Under the pieces are notes generated by a model, which saw only the letters and a list, made by a program, of their open reading frames with translations, searched no databases and was not told the DNA's origin. Shown one piece after another: positions 5,208 to 30,030 of a stretch of DNA of 30,030 nucleotides. The position numbers and the translations under genes are program-made. Position 1 is the stretch's first letter. Each line of letters begins with the position of its first letter. The DNA comes from a virus (lineage: Duplodnaviria > Heunggongvirae > Uroviricota > Caudoviricetes): the IMG/VR virus record IMGVR_UViG_2778261231_000012; one strand, written 5' to 3'.

Positions 5208-5822
5208 TTATCTCTTTGTTGCGTTCATGGTCACATGGTAAACGAATTGGCTAAATTGGTTATCCCAGCGCCCATTATGATTAGCTGCAACTAATTGCAT
5301 TAACGCCTGCATTAACTTGCTGAACAGCAAGATTAACTTAAGTCTGTTTTTTGAACTGTCACTATCTAAGGAAACTTCTTCGGTTAATTGATTCTCGGCG
5401 TTAAAAATACCCAGTTTTGATTCTTCCATGCTGGGTTCCGTTGGATGCTGTTTAAAGTATTCAGTCAGAGTATCCTTCAGGCTCTGGATCCTTGAATCAG
5501 CAATGCTTTGTATTGATGGATTGTGTGCAAGGTCATTACGCATTGAGTTGATGGTTTTAAGTGATTTCATAAGTTCCGGGGGGATTCCCAGGTTTCCCGC
5601 CATGGATATTTTAGTATTACATTCGATTAAAAGTTTGTTTTTATCTCTTCCAAAGAGATCTTGGCAGTCACAGCATGCGCATATCCATGCTTCGACCATG
5701 CGCTCACAAAGTAGGTGAATGCGCAATGTAGTACCCACATCGTCATCGCTTTCCACTGCTCTCGCGAATAAAGATGGAAAATCAATCTCATGGTAATAGT
5801 CCATGAAAATCCTTGCATTCAT
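5208..5822 (-). CDS. hypothetical protein with HEPN-like R-N-x-x-A-H motif; candidate abortive-infection/defence moron in the lambda bor position
   Basis: 204-aa antisense ORF with GGAGG SD 4 nt before ATG; motif SMRNDLAHN at residues 94-101; locally A+T-rich DNA; transcribed against the late operon with a hairpin after its stop. Confidence 0.6.
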   Translation of the reverse strand: MNARIFMDYYHEIDFPSLFARAVESDDDVGTTLRIHLLCERMVEAWICACCDCQDLFGRDKNKLLIECNTKISMAGNLGIPPELMKSLKTINSMRNDLAHNPSIQSIADSRIQSLKDTLTEYFKQHPTEPSMEESKLGIFNAENQLTEEVSLDSDSSKNRLKLILLFSKLMQALMQLVAANHNGRWDNQFSQFVYHVTMNATKR

Positions 5823-6121: not shown

Positions 6122-6188
6122 GTGAGCCTGGGTGATGCCGTTAGGTTGCGTTTACCTCTCGGGCGGCATTGCCGTGCGACAGGCTCAC
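6122..6188 (+). promoter_or_regulatory. long nested stem-loop in the 5' leader of the 6208 gene
   Basis: gtgagcctg (6122-6130) pairs with caggctcac (6180-6188); inner atgccg (6135-6140) with cggcat (6164-6169); innermost aggt/acct; ends 5 nt before the AAGGA SD. Confidence 0.4.
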
Positions 6189-6207
6189 GCCTAAAAGGAA
6201 ATATTCC

Positions 6208-6936
6208 ATGAGTAACAAAATCATTACGCTATCTGGCGCTGCTAATGAAGTGCTTTATGCGCTGTTTTTCCGTGGCGCGTTGCTGTCTGGTGATCTGCCT
6301 TCTAAATCTGGCACAGCCGAATTGCGCGAGCTTGGTTTTGCTGAAACCAGACACACAGCAACTGAATACCAGAAAGAAAATCACTTTACCTTTCTGACAT
6401 CAGAAGGGCAGAAATTTGCCGTTGAACACCTGGTCAATACGCGTTTTGGTGAGCAGCAATATTGCGCTTCGATGACGCTTGGCGTTGAGATTGATACCTC
6501 TGCTGCACAAAAGGCAATCGACGAGCTGGACCAGCGCATTCGTGACACCGTCTCCTTCGAACTTATTCGCAATGGAGTGTCATTCATCAAGGACGCCGCT
6601 ATCGCAAATGGTGCTATCCACGCAGCGGCAATCGAAACACCTCAGCCGGTGACCAATATCTACAACATCAGCCTTGGTATCCAGCGTGATGAGCCAGCGC
6701 AGAACAAGGTAACCGTCAGTGCCGATAAGTTCAAAGTTAAACCTGGTGTTGATACCAACATTGAAACGTTGATCGAAAACGCGCTGAAAAACGCTGCTGA
6801 ATGTGCGGCGCTGGATGTCACAAAGCAAATGGCAGCAGACAAGAAAGCGATGGATGAACTGGCTTCCTATGTCCGCACGGCCATCATGATGGAATGTTTC
6901 CCCGGTGGTGTTATCTGGCAGCAGTGCCGTCGATAG
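6208..6936 (+). CDS. hypothetical protein (242 aa), unknown function, immediately upstream of cos
   Basis: ORF with AAGGA SD 7 nt upstream of ATG 6208; no motif I can recognise. Confidence 0.65.
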   Translation: MSNKIITLSGAANEVLYALFFRGALLSGDLPSKSGTAELRELGFAETRHTATEYQKENHFTFLTSEGQKFAVEHLVNTRFGEQQYCASMTLGVEIDTSAAQKAIDELDQRIRDTVSFELIRNGVSFIKDAAIANGAIHAAAIETPQPVTNIYNISLGIQRDEPAQNKVTVSADKFKVKPGVDTNIETLIENALKNAAECAALDVTKQMAADKKAMDELASYVRTAIMMECFPGGVIWQQCRR

Positions 6937-6949
6937 TGTGCAATTGATA

Positions 6950-7181
6950 ATTATTATCGTTTGCGGGTCCTTTCCGGCGATCCGCCTTGTTACGGGGCGG
7001 CGTCCGCGCAGATTCTCGCTATTTATGAAAATTTTCTGGTTTATGCCATTTCCGTTCTTCTTCTTGTTTACTCATTGTTTTTGTTAAAAACGTCCTCTCT
7101 CCAGAAAGGAAATGCTGAGCAAGGAAAACGGAAGTTTACCGTTGATTGTTTCCTTTCTCTGTTTTTTGCCAGGAGTAAGCC
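6950..7181 (+). other. cos site (cosQ-cosN-cosB) of lambda type; predicted 12-nt cohesive end GGGCGGCGTCCG at 6995-7006
   Basis: Strong resemblance to the recalled lambda left end: ACG/GGGCGGCG(T)CC(G)CGC...TTCTCGCTATTTATGAAAATTTTC.GGTTTA...TTTCCGTTCTTCTTC...TTTCCTTTCTCTGTTTTT, immediately upstream of Nu1. Confidence 0.8.
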
Positions 7182-22457: not shown

Positions 22458-25400
22458 ATGGCTACTTCCACTCCGATTAGAGGCCGCAAGGGCGGCAGTT
22501 CCAGTTCCCGTACCCCTACAGAACAGCCAGACGATCTCCAGTCCGTAGCGAAGGCCAAGATTCTTGTTGCGCTGGGAGAAGGGGAATTTGCGGGGCAGTT
22601 AACGGCTAAAGATATCTATCTTGACGGCACGCCACTGGAGAATGCAGACGGATCGCAAAACTTCAGCGGCGTGGCATGGGAGTTCCGCCCGGGGACTCAG
22701 GCTCAAAAGTATATTCAGGGCATCCCCGGTACCGAGAATGAAATCAGCGTAGGTACCGAAGTTTCAAGCGCTACGGCCTGGACGCATACCTTTACCAACA
22801 CCCAGCTGTCAGCCATTCGTCTGCGCCTCAAATGGCCATCACTGTTTAAACAGGAGGACGACGGCGATCTGGTCGGCTATTCGATTAATTACGCTATCGA
22901 TCTGCAGACAGATGGCGGTACCTGGCAGACCGTGCTTAATACCAGCGTCACCGGGAAAACCACGTCAGGCTACGAACGCAGCCACCGTATCGACTTACCG
23001 CAGGCGGGAAGCACCTGGACGGTACGTCTTCGTAAGCTCACCGCAGATGCGAACAGTGCGAAAATTGGCGACACGATGACGCTGCAGAGCTACACGGAGG
23101 TAATCGATGCCAAACTGCGCTATCCAAACACCGCGCTGCTGTACATTGAATTCGATTCAAGCCAGTTTAACGGCTCCATCCCGCAAATTTCCTGTGAACC
23201 GCGCGGGCGCGTTATCCGCGTGCCGGATACTTACGATCCGGAAACCCGGACCTATAGCGGTACCTGGACGGGGGCGTTTAAGTGGGCATGGACGGACAAT
23301 CCGGCGTGGATTTTTTACGATCTGGTGGTGAGCGACCGTTTTGGACTTGGCGACCGCCTGACGGCGGCAAATATTGATAAATGGACGCTTTACCAGGTCG
23401 CACAATATTGCGATCAGCTGGTTCCTGATGGTAAAGGCGGTAGCGGCACCGAGCCTCGCTATACCTGTAACGTGTACGTGCAGGAGAGGAATGACGCCTA
23501 TACCGTGTTACGTGATTTTGCGGCGATATTCCGTGGCATGACGTACTGGGGCGGCAATCAAATCGTTGCACTGGCAGATATGCCCCGCGATGTTGATTAC
23601 AGCTACACCCGCGCTAACGTGGTTGACGGCCGCTTTACCTATTCTGGCAGCACCACTAAAAACCGCTATACCACCGCGCTGGTTTCCTGGTCAGATCCGG
23701 GTAATGCCTACGCAGATGCGATGGAGCCGGTTTTTGAACAGGAGCTCGTCGCTCGCTTTGGCACAAACCAGCTCGAGATGACAGCCATTGGCTGTACCCG
23801 GCAGTCTGAGGCAAACCGTAAGGGGCGCTGGGGGATTCAGACCAATAACAAGGATCGCATCGTATCGTTTGATGTTGGTCTGGACGGCAACATTCCACAG
23901 CCTGGTTATATTATCGCGGTTGCCGATGAGCTGTTATCCGGAAAGGTGATGGGAGGGCGTATCAGCGCGGTTAATGGTCGCGTTATCACGCTTGATCGTG
24001 ATTCCGCTGCCGTTGCCGGAAGCCGTCTTATGGTTAACCTGCCGTCTGGCGCATCGCAGAGCAGGACGATTCAGAGCGTAAACGGCCGGGCTGTCACCGT
24101 GACCACGGCATACAGCGAAACACCGGCAGTCGAATCGGTATGGATTGTCGAATCCGACGAGCTTTATGCACAGCAATATCGTGTTATCAGCGTCTCTGAT
24201 AATAACGACGGCACGTTTTCTATTACTGGTGCTTTTCACGATCCGGATAAGTATGCCCGTATCGATACCGGCGCCATCGTCGACCAGCGGCCAATAAGTG
24301 TAATTCCGCCCGGTAATCAGTCCCCGCCAGCTAATATCGCGATCAGTTCGTTTTCTGTCGTTCAGCAGAATATCAGCGTTGAGACCATGCGCGTCAGCTG
24401 GGACCAGGCGAAAAATGCTATCGCGTATGAGGCACAGTGGCGTCGCAATGACGGGAACTGGGTGAATGTGCCGCGCAGCTCCACCACGTCATTCGATGTT
24501 CCGGGGATTTATGCAGGACGCTACCTGGTTCGCGTGCGTGCCATCAATGCCGCCGAAATTTCATCTGGGTGGGGCTATTCAGAAGAGAAAACGTTGACGG
24601 GTAAAGTGGGAAACCCACCGAAGCCGGTTGGCTTCATCGCTTCTGAAAACGTGGTATTCGGTATTGAGCTGAACTGGGGATTCCCGGCGAATACCGAAGA
24701 CACGCTGAAGACGGAAATTCAGTACAGCCTGACCGGTACTGAAGACGATGCCATGCTGCTGGCCGATGTGCCTTACCCGCAGCGCAAATATCAGCAGATG
24801 GGCCTTAAGGCTGGGCAGATTTTCTGGTACCGCGCGCAGCTGGTGGACCGCAGCGGCAACGAATCAGGGTACACAGAATGGGTGCGAGGACAGGCCAGCA
24901 TCGATGTTTCCGATATCACAGATGTGATTCTGGAGGAAATTAAAGACTCCGATACGTTCAAAGACCTGATCGAGAACGCGGTGGACAGCAATGAAAAAAT
25001 TGCTGGCATGGCTGACGACATCAAACAGGCCAACGATGAACTTGAGCTCCAGGCGCAGGAAATCGCAAAAAACGCGCAGGACATTGGGCAGGTTCAGACC
25101 AGTGTTAATGAGCTTTCGAGCACGGTCGGTGATGTATCTTCCTCTCTATCAGATCTTGAGCAGACCGTCGCAACGGCTGATACCGCGCTGGGCCAGCGAA
25201 TCGACAGCATCAGCGTGTCTATGGACGGCATGACGGGCGGGGTTAAGAACTCAGCCATTGCCATTATCCAGAACGGACTGGCGCAGGTGGCCACACGCAA
25301 AAGGCTTTCCGCGACGGTCGCCGGTAACAGTGCGCAGCTGGATCGTCTCGACGAGGTGATCGTCAGTGAGAAGGAAGCCACAGCACGTTCATTGCTGAGC

Positions 25401-26009
25401 CTGCGGACGGACGTCAACGGCAACAAGGCATCCATCAACAGCCTGAATCAGACGCTCTCCGACTATCAGCAGGCCACCGCCACGCAGATAAACGGCATCA
25501 CGGCGACCGTGAACGGGCATACCTCCGCCATCACCACTAACGCTCAGGCTATAGCCAACGTTAATGGCGAACTCAGCGCGATGTATAACATCAAGGTGGG
25601 GGTGTCCAGTAACGGGCAGTATTACGCTGCCGGGATGGGTATTGGGGTTCAAAATACACCCTCCGGCATGCAGTCACAGGTAATCTTCCTGGCAGACCGT
25701 TTCGCCGTGACTACTATGGTCGGCGGGACTGTAACACTGCCGTTCGTTATCCAGAATGGCCAGGCCATTATCAGGGATACAGTCATTGGCGACGGGACCA
25801 TAAGCAATGCAAAAATTGGCAATTACATCCAGTCGAACAATTATGTTGCCGGCTCTGTTGGCTGGAAACTGGATAAGTCCGGGACGTTTGAGAACTACGG
25901 TTCGACAGCTGGGGAGGGAGCCATGAAGCAGACCAACCAGACAATCAGCGTCAAGGATGGCAACAACGTTCTGAGAGTGCAGGTTGGCCGATTAACGGGG
26001 GTGTTCTGA
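22458..26009 (+). CDS. J: tip attachment / host specificity protein gpJ (central tail fibre)
   Basis: 1183 aa; lambda J-like length, position and internal motifs (YTCNVYV, FN3-like repeats); C-terminal about 300 aa look divergent from lambda J by recall. Confidence 0.95.
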   Translation: MATSTPIRGRKGGSSSSRTPTEQPDDLQSVAKAKILVALGEGEFAGQLTAKDIYLDGTPLENADGSQNFSGVAWEFRPGTQAQKYIQGIPGTENEISVGTEVSSATAWTHTFTNTQLSAIRLRLKWPSLFKQEDDGDLVGYSINYAIDLQTDGGTWQTVLNTSVTGKTTSGYERSHRIDLPQAGSTWTVRLRKLTADANSAKIGDTMTLQSYTEVIDAKLRYPNTALLYIEFDSSQFNGSIPQISCEPRGRVIRVPDTYDPETRTYSGTWTGAFKWAWTDNPAWIFYDLVVSDRFGLGDRLTAANIDKWTLYQVAQYCDQLVPDGKGGSGTEPRYTCNVYVQERNDAYTVLRDFAAIFRGMTYWGGNQIVALADMPRDVDYSYTRANVVDGRFTYSGSTTKNRYTTALVSWSDPGNAYADAMEPVFEQELVARFGTNQLEMTAIGCTRQSEANRKGRWGIQTNNKDRIVSFDVGLDGNIPQPGYIIAVADELLSGKVMGGRISAVNGRVITLDRDSAAVAGSRLMVNLPSGASQSRTIQSVNGRAVTVTTAYSETPAVESVWIVESDELYAQQYRVISVSDNNDGTFSITGAFHDPDKYARIDTGAIVDQRPISVIPPGNQSPPANIAISSFSVVQQNISVETMRVSWDQAKNAIAYEAQWRRNDGNWVNVPRSSTTSFDVPGIYAGRYLVRVRAINAAEISSGWGYSEEKTLTGKVGNPPKPVGFIASENVVFGIELNWGFPANTEDTLKTEIQYSLTGTEDDAMLLADVPYPQRKYQQMGLKAGQIFWYRAQLVDRSGNESGYTEWVRGQASIDVSDITDVILEEIKDSDTFKDLIENAVDSNEKIAGMADDIKQANDELELQAQEIAKNAQDIGQVQTSVNELSSTVGDVSSSLSDLEQTVATADTALGQRIDSISVSMDGMTGGVKNSAIAIIQNGLAQVATRKRLSATVAGNSAQLDRLDEVIVSEKEATARSLLSLRTDVNGNKASINSLNQTLSDYQQATATQINGITATVNGHTSAITTNAQAIANVNGELSAMYNIKVGVSSNGQYYAAGMGIGVQNTPSGMQSQVIFLADRFAVTTMVGGTVTLPFVIQNGQAIIRDTVIGDGTISNAKIGNYIQSNNYVAGSVGWKLDKSGTFENYGSTAGEGAMKQTNQTISVKDGNNVLRVQVGRLTGVF

Positions 26010-26010
26010 T

Positions 26011-26313
26011 ATGGCTTATGGAATACAGACCTGGGATGCTTCGGGAAACCCCAACAACTACGGAATCAAGCCCGTTTCCGTTGTTGGACGTATACAACTT
26101 GCCGCCGGACAAAACTCCGGCAGCTGGTCTTTCACTGTACCCTCAGGAATGAAGGTCGGTTTTGCGCTCTCACTTGATGAAGGAGGTAACAGCGTAGGGA
26201 GGAGCATTGTCGCGTCAGGGAACACAATAACCGTAACCGCAGCCTCTTCTGTGGGCCTGGGTAATTACCCGGCCTCTAAATGTGAGGTGGTCGTTTTCAT
26301 GGAGAAAGCATAA
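26011..26313 (+). CDS. hypothetical protein downstream of J (contains WDASG motif)
   Basis: 100-aa ORF starting 2 nt after the J stop. Confidence 0.55.
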   Translation: MAYGIQTWDASGNPNNYGIKPVSVVGRIQLAAGQNSGSWSFTVPSGMKVGFALSLDEGGNSVGRSIVASGNTITVTAASSVGLGNYPASKCEVVVFMEKA

Positions 26314-26987
26314 TGGCCGAATTTGGCGCGATGATATTAATGGATAACGGGAATCCCTTTGTAACGCCACAATCAACGCCTTTCTGTCTTTACGGGAAGT
26401 ATACCTTCAATTCATCCGCGAATGGCAGTTCTCAGCAGGTTGCTCAAAATATCGCTTTAAACGCTGATTACCCAGTGATGGTTTTTATCAAAACCACCAA
26501 TACAGCACAGCCCACTCCGGTTATGTCTTACAGGAACGGCGGTAATGTGTATGTTGTTGGTGTTAATCCCTACAACCAAAGTTTCACTTTAACGGCGTAC
26601 GTTTTTGCCATATTCCCGCAGATATTACCGAAATGGGGTTTGGCAATATGGGATGCGAGCGGAAAGCTTGTGTTAACTAATGAGTCCCGTGTGCTATCAG
26701 ACCTGCAGACGGTTGGCACGCCTGGTGCAAACGGCGGGATAAATATTGACCAGACGCTGAGCGGGTCATGGGCCGTTGCACCTGCTCAGTTGGGTCAGAC
26801 CATCATTGTGAATAATTCAACCAAGCCTCCGACTATCTACACGATAAATGCTTATTCTTCATGCAGGTTTGACGGGGCCAATACGAGGATAAACGCAGGG
26901 GGGACCTCCACTGGGGCAGGTTCACCTGGAGGGGGAACGAATACTGGCATTTCATTAACCGCCATAAATACAGCGGCCTATGATTGA
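26313..26987 (+). CDS. hypothetical protein (WDASG motif; Gly-rich C-terminus), possibly tail-tip associated
   Basis: 224-aa ORF whose ATG overlaps the preceding stop (TAATG); shares IWDASGK-type motif with the preceding ORF. Confidence 0.55.
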   Translation: MAEFGAMILMDNGNPFVTPQSTPFCLYGKYTFNSSANGSSQQVAQNIALNADYPVMVFIKTTNTAQPTPVMSYRNGGNVYVVGVNPYNQSFTLTAYVFAIFPQILPKWGLAIWDASGKLVLTNESRVLSDLQTVGTPGANGGINIDQTLSGSWAVAPAQLGQTIIVNNSTKPPTIYTINAYSSCRFDGANTRINAGGTSTGAGSPGGGTNTGISLTAINTAAYD

Positions 26988-27098
26988 TTGATCGTTTTTA
27001 GCGATCAATAACATAATATTGATCTATCCAATCAATTATACCCACCAGAATTGTATTGGTATCGTCTAAGATACTGAATTCCTCTGGATACTATCAAA

Positions 27099-27332
27099 AT
27101 GAGAAAACTGATTATCTGCATGGCAGGCGCTGTCATGCTTACAGGATGCGCTGGCGTAATTGAGAAACAGGAACCAGTTTGCAGCGGCACTGCAATCGTT
27201 GGCGGTCAGGAAACTACGGTTCAGATTTACGGTGTGCGTAAACAAAACAACCAGACGCAGTACCGGGCTGGATATCCTTTCAGCTGGCGCTGGGTAAGTG
27301 CGAATACATTTACCGAAACAACCTGCAAATAA
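27099..27332 (+). CDS. small lipoprotein moron (candidate Cor-like superinfection-exclusion lipoprotein)
   Basis: 77 aa; signal peptide with lipobox LTGC (MRKLIICMAGAVMLTGCAG); own upstream AT-rich region and downstream intrinsic terminator; located between J-distal ORFs and the side tail fibre. Confidence 0.6.
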   Translation: MRKLIICMAGAVMLTGCAGVIEKQEPVCSGTAIVGGQETTVQIYGVRKQNNQTQYRAGYPFSWRWVSANTFTETTCK

Positions 27333-27351
27333 CCCACTACGCTTAAACATA

Positions 27352-27376
27352 AACCTCGCTCCGGCGGGGTTTTTTT
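27352..27376 (+). terminator. intrinsic terminator after the lipoprotein gene
   Basis: cctcgc-tccccg-gcgggg hairpin followed by TTTTTTT. Confidence 0.6.
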
Positions 27377-27392
27377 ATTGCCTGGAGAAAAT

Positions 27393-28226
27393 ATGCTTTA
27401 TAACACCGGCACCATCGCCATTAATGGAAATACCGCCACCGGGACGGGTACAAACTGGACGGCACCGGCCAGCCAGGTCCGCGCTGGCCAGACGATTATC
27501 GTGATGTCTAACCCGGTGCAGCTGTTTCATATTTCATCCGTGAACAGCGCCACGTCAATGACGGTTACGCCTGCCGCTTCCCCGGCGCTGAGCGGCCAGA
27601 AATACGCCATTCTGGTGTCAGACATTATCTCCGTGGACGGACTGGCCCAGGCAATGTCGCAGCTCATCAAAGAGTATGACGAGAACATTGGCGCGTGGGA
27701 GACGTTCGCCACTACCTCAGCAAACCAGACCATCACCGTTACCATCAACGGGACCACCGTAACCATCCCTGGCATCGGTAAACTGGCACAGAAAGGGAGC
27801 AACGGTGCGGTTACTGTCGCAGACGGCGGAACCGGCGCAACGAATGCCGCAGACGCTCGCACAAACCTTGGTTTGGGAACAGCGGCGCAGCGAAATGTGG
27901 GAACGGGTGCAAATCAGATCCCAGATATGAATTCATTCACATCTCAAAAGTCATTGACCGGATGGCAAAAATTGCCTGGTGGATTGATTTTACAGTGGGG
28001 GCTGACAACAACCTCTGGGTCAGAGCAAAACGCACTGGTAACATTTCCTGTGGCATTTCCGGGATCAATACTGATGGAATATACGACATATGCAAACATC
28101 TCCGGCGACCCAGCAACCGGATCAACATACATTGGCCAGGTCAGAACAACGAGTAATACACAAATGTATGTTCGCAATCTTGGGCCGACTAATGCTCAAT
28201 ATAACTGGCTAGTAATCGGATATTAA
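27393..28226 (+). CDS. side tail fibre protein (constant N-terminal part plus currently expressed variable C-terminal cassette Sv)
   Basis: ATG 27393 with GGAG SD; N-terminus [19 protein letters not shown] and motif [21 protein letters not shown] typical of phage tail fibres; gix-like crossover site lies inside the gene at 27856-27881. Confidence 0.85.
27856..27881. repeat. left crossover site of the invertible segment (gix/hix-like, 12+2+12 bp)
   Basis: ctcgcacAAACC-TT-GGTTTgggaaca; inner half is a perfect inverted copy of 29397-29408. Confidence 0.7.
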
Positions 28227-28236
28227 GGGAGGGGGT

Positions 28237-28641
28237 ATGTATTACGCTAAATCTACAGGTGGATTTTATACGCCTGAAATTAACGGAAAAAATATTCCTG
28301 ATGATGCTATTGAAATCACGGAAGATGAATACTTGGGATTATTGCAGGCTCAGGCTGACGGGAAAATAATTACCTCAGATGATAAGGGGAATCCGGTTGC
28401 AATCGATCCGCCGCCATTGACGCAAGAAGAACTTGTTGCGCAGGCTGAACGCGAAAAGGCTTCTTTGTTAAAGCAAGCAACGAATTCGATTGCGCCGTTA
28501 CAGGATGCTTCCGACCTTGGTATTGCGACAGATGAAGAAATTAAACAGCTTACTGACTGGAAAAAATATCGGGTGCAGCTGATGCGTGTTGATACATCAA
28601 AAGCACCCGCTTTCGAGTGGCCTACATCTCCGGCTGATTAG
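28237..28641 (+). CDS. tail fibre assembly protein (Tfa)
   Basis: 134 aa; GGGAGGGGG SD; C-terminus [23 protein letters not shown] matches the recalled Tfa family signature. Confidence 0.85.
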
Positions 28642-29056
28642 GCCAAGTAATATCCGGGGCCGCTGAAGTATCGACGGCTTCAATATTATCCAGGTAATCC
28701 AGCCACGCGTTATATCTCGCTTTATCCGTGTCTTTTAAGCGGCCCATAGCCGCTTTCCCTGGCCACTGATTGCTGTTTATGTAGTCGTTTGCAGCATCAG
28801 TTAGGCTCTGCTTTTCAACCTCCGCTTGCGCCACAATTTCTTCATGGGTCGGAGGGGGAATGTCTTCCCATTCAGGTAGTCCATTTGTTCCAGCTACTCT
28901 TTTTTTCCCTTCGGGAGGCTCTCCCGTAAATTCGCTGTATAACTGTTCTGTTACCTCAACTGCATCCTCTGGCCAACCGATGCCATTGATATAATCATCT
29001 TTAAGCTCAAGCGGGAAAAAGCTGTTGTGTTTAGCGCTATAAAAATATGTGTTCAC
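28622..29056 (-). CDS. alternative tail fibre assembly protein (Tfa')
   Basis: Minus-strand ORF with C-terminus [24 protein letters not shown]; likely GTG start at 29056 ([14 protein letters not shown], parallel to the + strand Tfa start [11 protein letters not shown]) preceded by GGGAG SD; track start 29119 is an extension. Confidence 0.7.
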
Positions 29057-29057
29057 G

Positions 29058-29405
29058 TTAGCTCCCAATAGCAAAAAAGTATGCATTGAAACCGCCCGCA
29101 CCGGACATGTACGCCCCAAATCCTGCGCCGTTAACGGTGTTATTCACCACTGCCAGAGTTGGCGATGGGGTTCCACCTGAAAAGTTAATATCAGCAAATG
29201 TAAGCTGAATATTGCTCACCACACTGGGAAAATTGATAGGGAATGGAACTGAAATCTGTGTTTGCCCCACAGGAAAACCCGCTTTTCCCCACTGTAAGAT
29301 TTTCCCACCTGGCAATTTTTGCCACCCACTAGCGTTGGTAAAGCTGGACATATCAGGTATCTGTCCGGCACCGGCTCCTACGTTCTTCGTTGCTGCTGTT
29401 CCCAA
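29058..29405 (-). CDS. alternative tail-fibre C-terminal cassette (Sv'), silent in this orientation
   Basis: Minus-strand ORF whose N-terminal part ([39 protein letters not shown]) is paralogous to the + strand fibre segment after the crossover site; no own start; in-frame fusion to the fibre N-terminal part would result from inversion. Confidence 0.7.
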   Translation of the reverse strand: MGTAATKNVGAGAGQIPDMSSFTNASGWQKLPGGKILQWGKAGFPVGQTQISVPFPINFPSVVSNIQLTFADINFSGGTPSPTLAVVNNTVNGAGFGAYMSGAGGFNAYFFAIGS

Positions 29406-29422
29406 ACCAACCTTTCAAATAT
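29397..29422. repeat. right crossover site of the invertible segment
   Basis: tgttcccAAACC-AA-CCTTTcaaatat; inner half identical (inverted) to the left site; about 60 bp upstream of the invertase gene. Confidence 0.7.
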
Positions 29423-29481: not shown

Positions 29482-30030
29482 ATGATTTACGGTTATGCCC
29501 GAGTATCAACAAACCACCAGGACACTGAATTGCAACTAACGGCGCTCAAGTCAGCGGGTTGTGAGAAAATTTTTGAAGAGCATGCCAGCGGGAGGAAATC
29601 GAATCGGCCGGTTCTAAAACGGCTGATCGCCACTATGCAGCCGGGGGATGAACTGGTGGTCTGGAAGCTGGACAGGATAGGCCGCAACGTTCTGCATGCG
29701 CTGTTGATGTTCCAGCAGTTACAGGAAAAGGGTATCAACTTCCGCAGTATTACCGATGGCGTGGATCTCAAAACAGCCAGCGGCCGCTATAACTTTCGTA
29801 ACATCCTTTCCGCAGCACAATATGAATCTGATCTTAATAGCGAACGTACCTTAGCAGGGCTGGCCGTAGCCAGGGCAAAAGGGCGAGTTGGTGGTCGCAG
29901 GCCTAAGTTCACGGATGAGCAATGGCGGGAAATGGGGGAGCGGATGGCAACCGGTGAATCACGACAAAGCGTATCAAAAACGTATGGAGTAGGGCTCTCA
30001 ACTCTGTATAAAAAGTTTCCAGCTAGCTGA
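29482..30030 (+). CDS. site-specific DNA invertase, serine recombinase of the Hin/Gin/Pin/Cin family
   Basis: 182 aa; N-terminal catalytic motif YARVSTNHQD, VVWKLDRIGRN, C-terminal HTH ending GLSTLYKKFPAS as in recalled Hin/Pin sequences. Confidence 0.9.
   Translation: MIYGYARVSTNHQDTELQLTALKSAGCEKIFEEHASGRKSNRPVLKRLIATMQPGDELVVWKLDRIGRNVLHALLMFQQLQEKGINFRSITDGVDLKTASGRYNFRNILSAAQYESDLNSERTLAGLAVARAKGRVGGRRPKFTDEQWREMGERMATGESRQSVSKTYGVGLSTLYKKFPAS

Follow-up and report, generated by a model that had tools for sequence, protein, structure and literature searches.

Which product is encoded by the short gene that stands between the tail genes and the side tail fibre gene of the virus record IMGVR_UViG_2778261231_000012, and what would it change in a cell carrying this DNA as a prophage? 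The window, i.e., the whole stretch of 30,030 nucleotides (nt) that was analysed, contains at positions 27,099 to 27,376 an open reading frame (ORF) followed by a hairpin, for which an initial annotation proposed a self-contained lipoprotein moron at the place where lambdoid phages carry cor, with an uncharacterised exclusion or virulence factor as the fallback. Judged by its sequence, the gene is cor, already characterised and present here as the archetypal allele of phage phi80 in its usual place; it is not a new gene, and the fallback is thereby dropped. To the whole explanation, namely a cor gene belonging to a lambdoid prophage of the phi80/mEp237 type, arranged as a moron unit in the late tail operon and acting in phage exclusion by inactivating FhuA, a probability of about 0.93 is assigned. 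The coding part of the locus comprises the following features, with lengths in amino acids (aa).

27099 to 27332, plus strand: cor coding sequence, ATG start, 77 codons plus stop, supported by the ORF list, the family matches and the identity to phi80
27099 to 27146, plus strand: signal peptide of 16 aa of the lipoprotein (signal peptidase II) type, read from the sequence, with which the sig_peptide/mat_peptide annotation of phi80 concurs
27147 to 27329, plus strand: mature Cor, 61 aa, predicted to be an all-beta small barrel, with Cys28 and Cys76 conserved

The plus-strand product of 77 aa, MRKLIICMAGAVMLTGCAGVIEKQEPVCSGTAIVGGQETTVQIYGVRKQNNQTQYRAGYPFSWRWVSANTFTETTCK, matches the NCBIfam model NF047972 (lamb_exclu_cor, 'phage exclusion lipoprotein Cor') with 140.9 bits and an expectation value (E) of 9e-42, residues 1-76 being aligned on positions 1-76 of the 78 positions of the profile; the model is an equivalog with a curated cutoff of 31 bits, which the score exceeds more than fourfold. 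PHROG 1119, 'Cor superinfection exclusion protein', is matched over the full length at E 7e-37. By tblastn against 50,697 phage records, full-length matches were found in 242, 15 of them at 99% identity or above, and the Cor proteins of phi80 (FN582354.1), mEp213 and HK225 proved identical in all 77 residues, followed by those of HK75, HK446, HK544 and HK633 (79%), N15 (63%), ES18 (60%) and SSU5 (44%), and by many homologues of T1-like and other lytic coliphages at 33-43%. A chance origin of the ORF is ruled out by the two family matches together with the complete identity to an annotated gene, while an antisense ORF at 27066-27350 (94 aa) has no family match and was taken as a shadow ORF. The phi80 record describes the identical gene as a 'conversion resistant protein Cor precursor', a moron gene whose product blocks the TonB-dependent outer membrane FhuA receptor (FN582354.1, CBH95076.1), and marks for it -35 and extended -10 elements, the start of transcription, a signal peptide for signal peptidase II, the lipidated Cys and a rho-independent terminator (FN582354.1). 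Among the E. coli genome matches shown, the PGAP name 'cor: phage exclusion lipoprotein Cor' stood in all eight.

The virulence part of the fallback would make the gene a moron of the Bor or Lom type, serving serum resistance or adhesion instead of phage exclusion, and it draws on a general analogy only, that of small envelope proteins encoded near lambdoid tail genes. Lom is a beta-barrel of about 200 aa and no lipoprotein, and Bor belongs to an unrelated lipoprotein family. In the Pfam scan at E<=1 neither a Cor model nor any match to Bor or Lom/Ail was obtained, only sub-threshold noise, namely DUF4223 (14.8 bits against a cutoff of 27) and MiAMP1 (14.7 bits against 26). With the protein identical to Cor, this reading is exceedingly improbable and effectively refuted, and the comparison with the Cor, Bor and Lom families that the initial annotation had suggested comes out on the side of Cor at full length. 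The PADLOC library of anti-phage defence gave no match for Cor.

The Cor precursor carries a canonical bacterial lipoprotein signal, and its lipidation is predicted, in agreement with the secreted lipoprotein of 77 aa with an LTGC lipobox that had been proposed at these coordinates. Up to the cleavage point the N-terminus reads MRKLIICMAGAVMLTGC, then AGV, and is composed of an n-region M-R-K with two basic residues, a hydrophobic core of ten residues (LIICMAGAVM), and the lipobox L14-T15-G16-C17 at nt 27138-27149, in which the codon of the presumably lipidated Cys17 occupies 27147-27149. The residue at +2 after Cys17 is Ala18, not one of those retaining lipoproteins in the inner membrane, so that, by the +2 sorting rule, release to the outer membrane is predicted. 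Cys17 and Cys28 are invariant in all seven aligned members of the family, and Cys76 is found in six of the seven, the remaining sequence stopping at the end of its hit so that the position is lost there.

The initial annotation had also given the gene its own upstream control region and a strong terminator, and both agree with the 111 base pairs (bp) of the gap before the gene, the hairpin with a T-run behind it, and the promoter and terminator annotated in the phi80 record. These flanking elements are located as follows.

26988 to 27098, plus strand: AT-rich intergenic region of 111 bp between the preceding 224-aa gene and cor, with a candidate promoter, read from the sequence
27057 to 27065, plus strand: candidate extended -10, TGGTATCGT, carried over from the phi80 annotation by ungapped alignment
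27351 to 27376, plus strand: rho-independent terminator of the cor cassette, seen as hairpin and fold, annotated in phi80 and mEp237 and 100% identical to both

The terminator has a stem at 27351-27372 with nine pairs, five of them G-C, and a loop of 4 nt, followed by a T7 tract to 27376; its RNA fold amounts to -15.7 kcal/mol (z = -2.75 against dinucleotide shuffles). It ends about 15 nt ahead of the probable ATG start of the fibre gene at 27393, which is preceded by GGAG at 27384-27387. A unit with its own promoter, bounded by a terminator, is the standard arrangement of morons in the literature. In the lysogen, cor would be transcribed from its own promoter and the terminator would limit the transcript to cor alone, whereas in lytic growth the Q-modified late transcription would pass the terminator and reach the fibre gene; since the terminator lies just ahead of that gene, the fibre should be reachable in lytic growth only by such antiterminated read-through.

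The cassette is also set off from its surroundings by its degree of identity to phi80. In ungapped alignment no base differs from phi80 or mEp237 between about 27081 and 27400, a stretch made up of the final 18 bp of the leader, all of the cor coding sequence, the terminator and the fibre gene's start, while the 97 bp upstream of about 27081 are identical to mEp237 and differ from phi80 by about 20 substitutions. A sliding profile against phi80 displays an island of 100% at 27100-27400 over an upstream background of 76-93% and a downstream fall to about 60%. This pattern is the usual lambdoid mosaic with a sharp boundary, and it suggests that cor and its terminator moved, or were homogenised, as a unit. 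The 351 bp at 27030-27380 are present in 44 of 5,426 complete E. coli genomes, in at least 41 of them at 99% identity or above, and all copies are chromosomal.

Within the upstream region, the extended -10 annotated in phi80 is TGGTATTGT, from which the candidate here is one base off (TATCGT against TATTGT) with the TG motif of the extended -10 kept; the transferred candidate -35 lies at 27035-27040 (ATTATA), and the transferred transcription start at 27073. Directly 5' of the candidate promoter, three GATC sites (26990, 27003 and 27021) are placed in TTGATC/GATCAA repeats, among which a hairpin-capable TTGATCG-N7-CGATCAA is seen. The repeats are mostly kept across the window phage, mEp237 and phi80 despite the diverged surroundings, and may serve as an operator or respond to Dam. 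As FhuA is Fur-regulated, Fur control of cor was an attractive idea; it was rejected, the best upstream match to the Fur box being 11/19 and phi80 having none of 11 or more.

The differences from phi80 in this region raise the reading that cor is intact yet silent in this prophage, with no phenotype. It is favoured by the roughly 20 substitutions in the 97 bp upstream, one of which falls in the annotated -10, and by the lack of an evident strong Shine-Dalgarno sequence 5' of the ATG. However, mEp237 has the identical upstream variant, the 351 bp conserved among the E. coli genomes include 69 bp of the upstream region and so point to maintenance, the TG of the extended -10 has been retained, and the coding sequence is without degeneration. 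A silent cor is accordingly considered very improbable, and an expressed gene remains the preferred reading.

As to its action, the 77-aa precursor would be exported, lipidated on Cys17 and cut by signal peptidase II, and the cleavage would leave a beta-rich domain of 61 aa in the periplasm, where FhuA, the TonB-dependent ferrichrome transporter, would be inactivated. The lysogen may then stop adsorbing phages that depend on FhuA, i.e., T1, T5, phi80, N15, HK022 and phages of the same kind as the prophage, and its ferrichrome uptake would be reduced in exchange. Cor would act like the Llp lipoprotein of phage T5, attaching to the periplasmic face of FhuA and altering the surface loops of the receptor by allostery. 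The Cor proteins of phi80 and N15 have been reported to inactivate the FhuA receptor, and those of HK022, N15 and phi80 to shield lysogens from FhuA-dependent phages and colicin M and to lower the ferrichrome uptake; the Cor of mEp167 stands beside them in the literature on FhuA inactivation, exclusion of FhuA-dependent phages, lowered ferrichrome uptake and protection against colicin M. From predicted models, a 2026 preprint proposes a common family for Cor and T5 Llp, and it demonstrates direct binding to FhuA and allostery for Llp, not yet for Cor.

A single-sequence AlphaFold2 model of the Cor studied here is a five-stranded beta domain, with a predicted local distance difference test (pLDDT) score that averages 72 and is about 80 in the mature portion. 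In the BFVD library of viral structures, the model comes closest to an exclusion protein of a T1-like phage (E 6e-6), and at E 1e-4 to 5e-3 it matches proteins of T5-like phages described as lipoproteins or as 'receptor-blocking'. A profile of seven Cor sequences, searched against the PDB, likewise has Llp (8a60_B) as its top match, at a non-significant E of 0.063 and largely over the signal peptide and the first Cys. By phmmer against PDB sequences, no match to Cor was obtained at E<=10.

Several points weigh against the account as drawn so far. The cor promoter is an annotation transfer, with a poor -35 and a -10 one base off that of phi80, and a simple consensus scan favoured another hexamer pair, at 26988-27017. 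FhuA inactivation and phage exclusion by this cor are predictions carried over from the identical phi80 protein and from orthologues. The 2026 preprint states that the molecular mechanism of Cor 'has not yet been elucidated', and a review reports that Cor interacts with other outer-membrane proteins (OMP). In Foldseek against the PDB, the Cor model retrieved nothing significant, and in the phmmer and profile searches the sequence link to Llp is not significant either.

Part of these points feeds a different mechanism for the same gene, in which Cor works via, or depends on, OmpA, OmpC, OmpF, OmpW, LamB as well as Slp, making FhuA inaccessible with no direct one-to-one complex of the Llp kind. 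The review names these proteins as the interaction partners of mEp167 Cor and speaks of an 'antiadsorption (Cor-OMP interaction)' mechanism, while the statement of the preprint and the weak likeness of Cor to Llp in both the sequence searches and Foldseek lend it further weight. This route is a live rival, though rather doubtful. With slightly better than even confidence, it is favoured that Cor blocks FhuA directly, in the manner of Llp and on the periplasmic side. A more far-reaching form of it, in which Cor is a structural homologue of Llp with the same action, its 61-aa beta domain docking on periplasmic FhuA and shutting the phage-binding loops, and in which Cor and Llp make one ancient family of blockers of TonB-dependent transporters shared by temperate and lytic phages, stands at about even odds.

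The FhuA-directed reading of Cor also agrees with the surroundings of the gene. By its gene content, the window is a lambdoid prophage: it has NinB, an HNH protein, RusA, Q, holin, endolysin and Rz, and the head and tail genes that follow the cos/terminase end at about 7182 share 97.7% identity with mEp237 and 91% with N15 and phi80. After J come the two small genes, then cor and the side tail fibre gene with a tail-fibre assembly gene behind it; a second assembly gene and an alternative fibre C-terminus, both inverted, and a DNA invertase complete the series. The closely related prophage of an E. coli genome has yciI and tonB, the phi80 attachment region, directly after its invertase. The nearest neighbours of cor are listed below.

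22458 to 26009, plus strand: host-specificity protein J, 1183 aa, probable FhuA-binding tail tip, from the ORF list and the J annotation in related records
26011 to 26313, plus strand: conserved 100-aa gene, equivalent to phi80 gp22 and N15 gp22 (phrog_557, E 3e-36)
26313 to 26987, plus strand: conserved 224-aa gene, equivalent to phi80 gp23 (phrog_425, E 3e-80)
27393 to 28226, plus strand: side tail fibre gene with its C-terminal part within an invertible segment (phrog_1591/12714; inverted repeats and a gix-like site)

The order of J, the 100-aa gene, the 224-aa gene, cor, the terminator and the side tail fibre is common to phi80, N15, mEp237 and one E. coli prophage. Thus, the position downstream of J that had been proposed is right as the location of cor; it does not hold as direct adjacency, two conserved genes standing between. 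A self-contained lipoprotein moron at the lambdoid cor position is accordingly upheld by the phi80 identity, the NF047972 score, this shared gene order and the moron annotation of phi80 taken together. The two intervening genes have no Pfam family, and the PHROGs labels for them are 'outer membrane protein' and 'membrane associated protein'. The C-terminal 249 aa of J are 71% identical to phi80 J, with the last 140 aa or so nearly identical, and phi80 uses FhuA as its receptor; because the end of J is phi80-like, FhuA is very probably also the receptor of this prophage, and it is the same protein that Cor would inactivate.

As the prophage carries the archetypal cor allele, its lysogens should resist T1, T5, phi80, other FhuA-dependent phages and colicin M, and take up ferrichrome more poorly, which would be relevant to the host range in phage therapy and to laboratory contamination by phi80-like phages. 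Beyond the correct annotation, the locus carries little weight of its own; how Cor inactivates FhuA is a question of the whole family, for which the 2026 preprint already draws the comparison with Llp.

Apart from the cor locus, the window holds at 27858-29422 an invertible tail-fibre segment of the Mu G / P1 C type. A search with the Mu gix consensus at up to three mismatches gave no site; a looser core pattern then located the gix-like site AAACCTTGGTTTGGGAACAG inside the fibre gene, at 27863-27882, and its partner in inverted orientation, AAAGGTTGGTTTGGGAACAG, corresponds to the reverse complement of 29397-29416. The pair flanks two alternative C-termini of the fibre, along with the chaperones for their assembly, beside a DNA invertase of the Hin/Gin family, and both copies of the tfa chaperone look intact in the window, whereas one is frameshifted in the related E. 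coli prophage.

28237 to 28641, plus strand: tfa, tail-fibre assembly gene
28622 to 29119, minus strand: inverted tfa
29058 to 29405, minus strand: inverted fibre C-terminus
29482 to 30030, plus strand: DNA invertase, running off the window end (phrog_125, E 6e-75)

Near cos, two further genes of unknown function were observed.

5208 to 5822, minus strand: 204-aa gene between the lysis genes and cos (phrog_5483, E 2e-80, unknown function)
6169 to 6936, plus strand: 255-aa protein just before cos (phrog_17079, E 1e-169, unknown function)

For the former, Pfam gave no match and PADLOC a very weak one to CARF/HEPN (E 0.004); the gene could be another moron or a defence candidate. The latter shows a marginal Pfam match to Phage_Tail_Tip (23.1 bits against a cutoff of 22), and directly 3' of its gene lies, at 6940-6964, the near-palindromic AT-rich site GCAATTGATAATTATTATCGTTTGC, which agrees with the Fur-box consensus at 15/19, the best value in the window.

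Among the known systems, phi80 is the closest, sharing the protein in 77 of 77 residues, the coding DNA and terminator at 100%, the lipobox, and the neighbours J, gp22 and gp23 upstream and the side tail fibre downstream; the prophage type is also the same, the yciI/tonB attachment site being occupied by a related prophage. It differs in the upstream 97 bp or so, with their roughly 20 substitutions, in the flanking genes, which are only 76-93% identical, and downstream, where a moron of the DinI family and a disrupted fibre region are present in phi80, but an intact invertible fibre segment in the window phage. The Cor proteins of N15 (a linear-plasmid prophage, gene 24), the HK75/HK446 type, ES18, SSU5 and the T1-like phages are of the same family and length, with the lipobox Cys, Cys28 and Cys76, and in N15 the gene is found in the same place, after gp21-gp22-gp23; SSU5 and the T1-like or lytic phages are more distant, at 33-44% identity, and the T1-like copies belong to lytic phages. 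Bor and Lom of lambda are likewise envelope proteins encoded by accessory genes near the lambdoid tail region, and Bor is also a lipoprotein, but their functions are serum resistance and adhesion, unlike that of Cor. The T5 Llp (PDB 8a60 chain B with FhuA; 7qjf) shares 9% identity with Cor in structural alignment, and it is an early product of a lytic phage, while expression of Cor is from a prophage.
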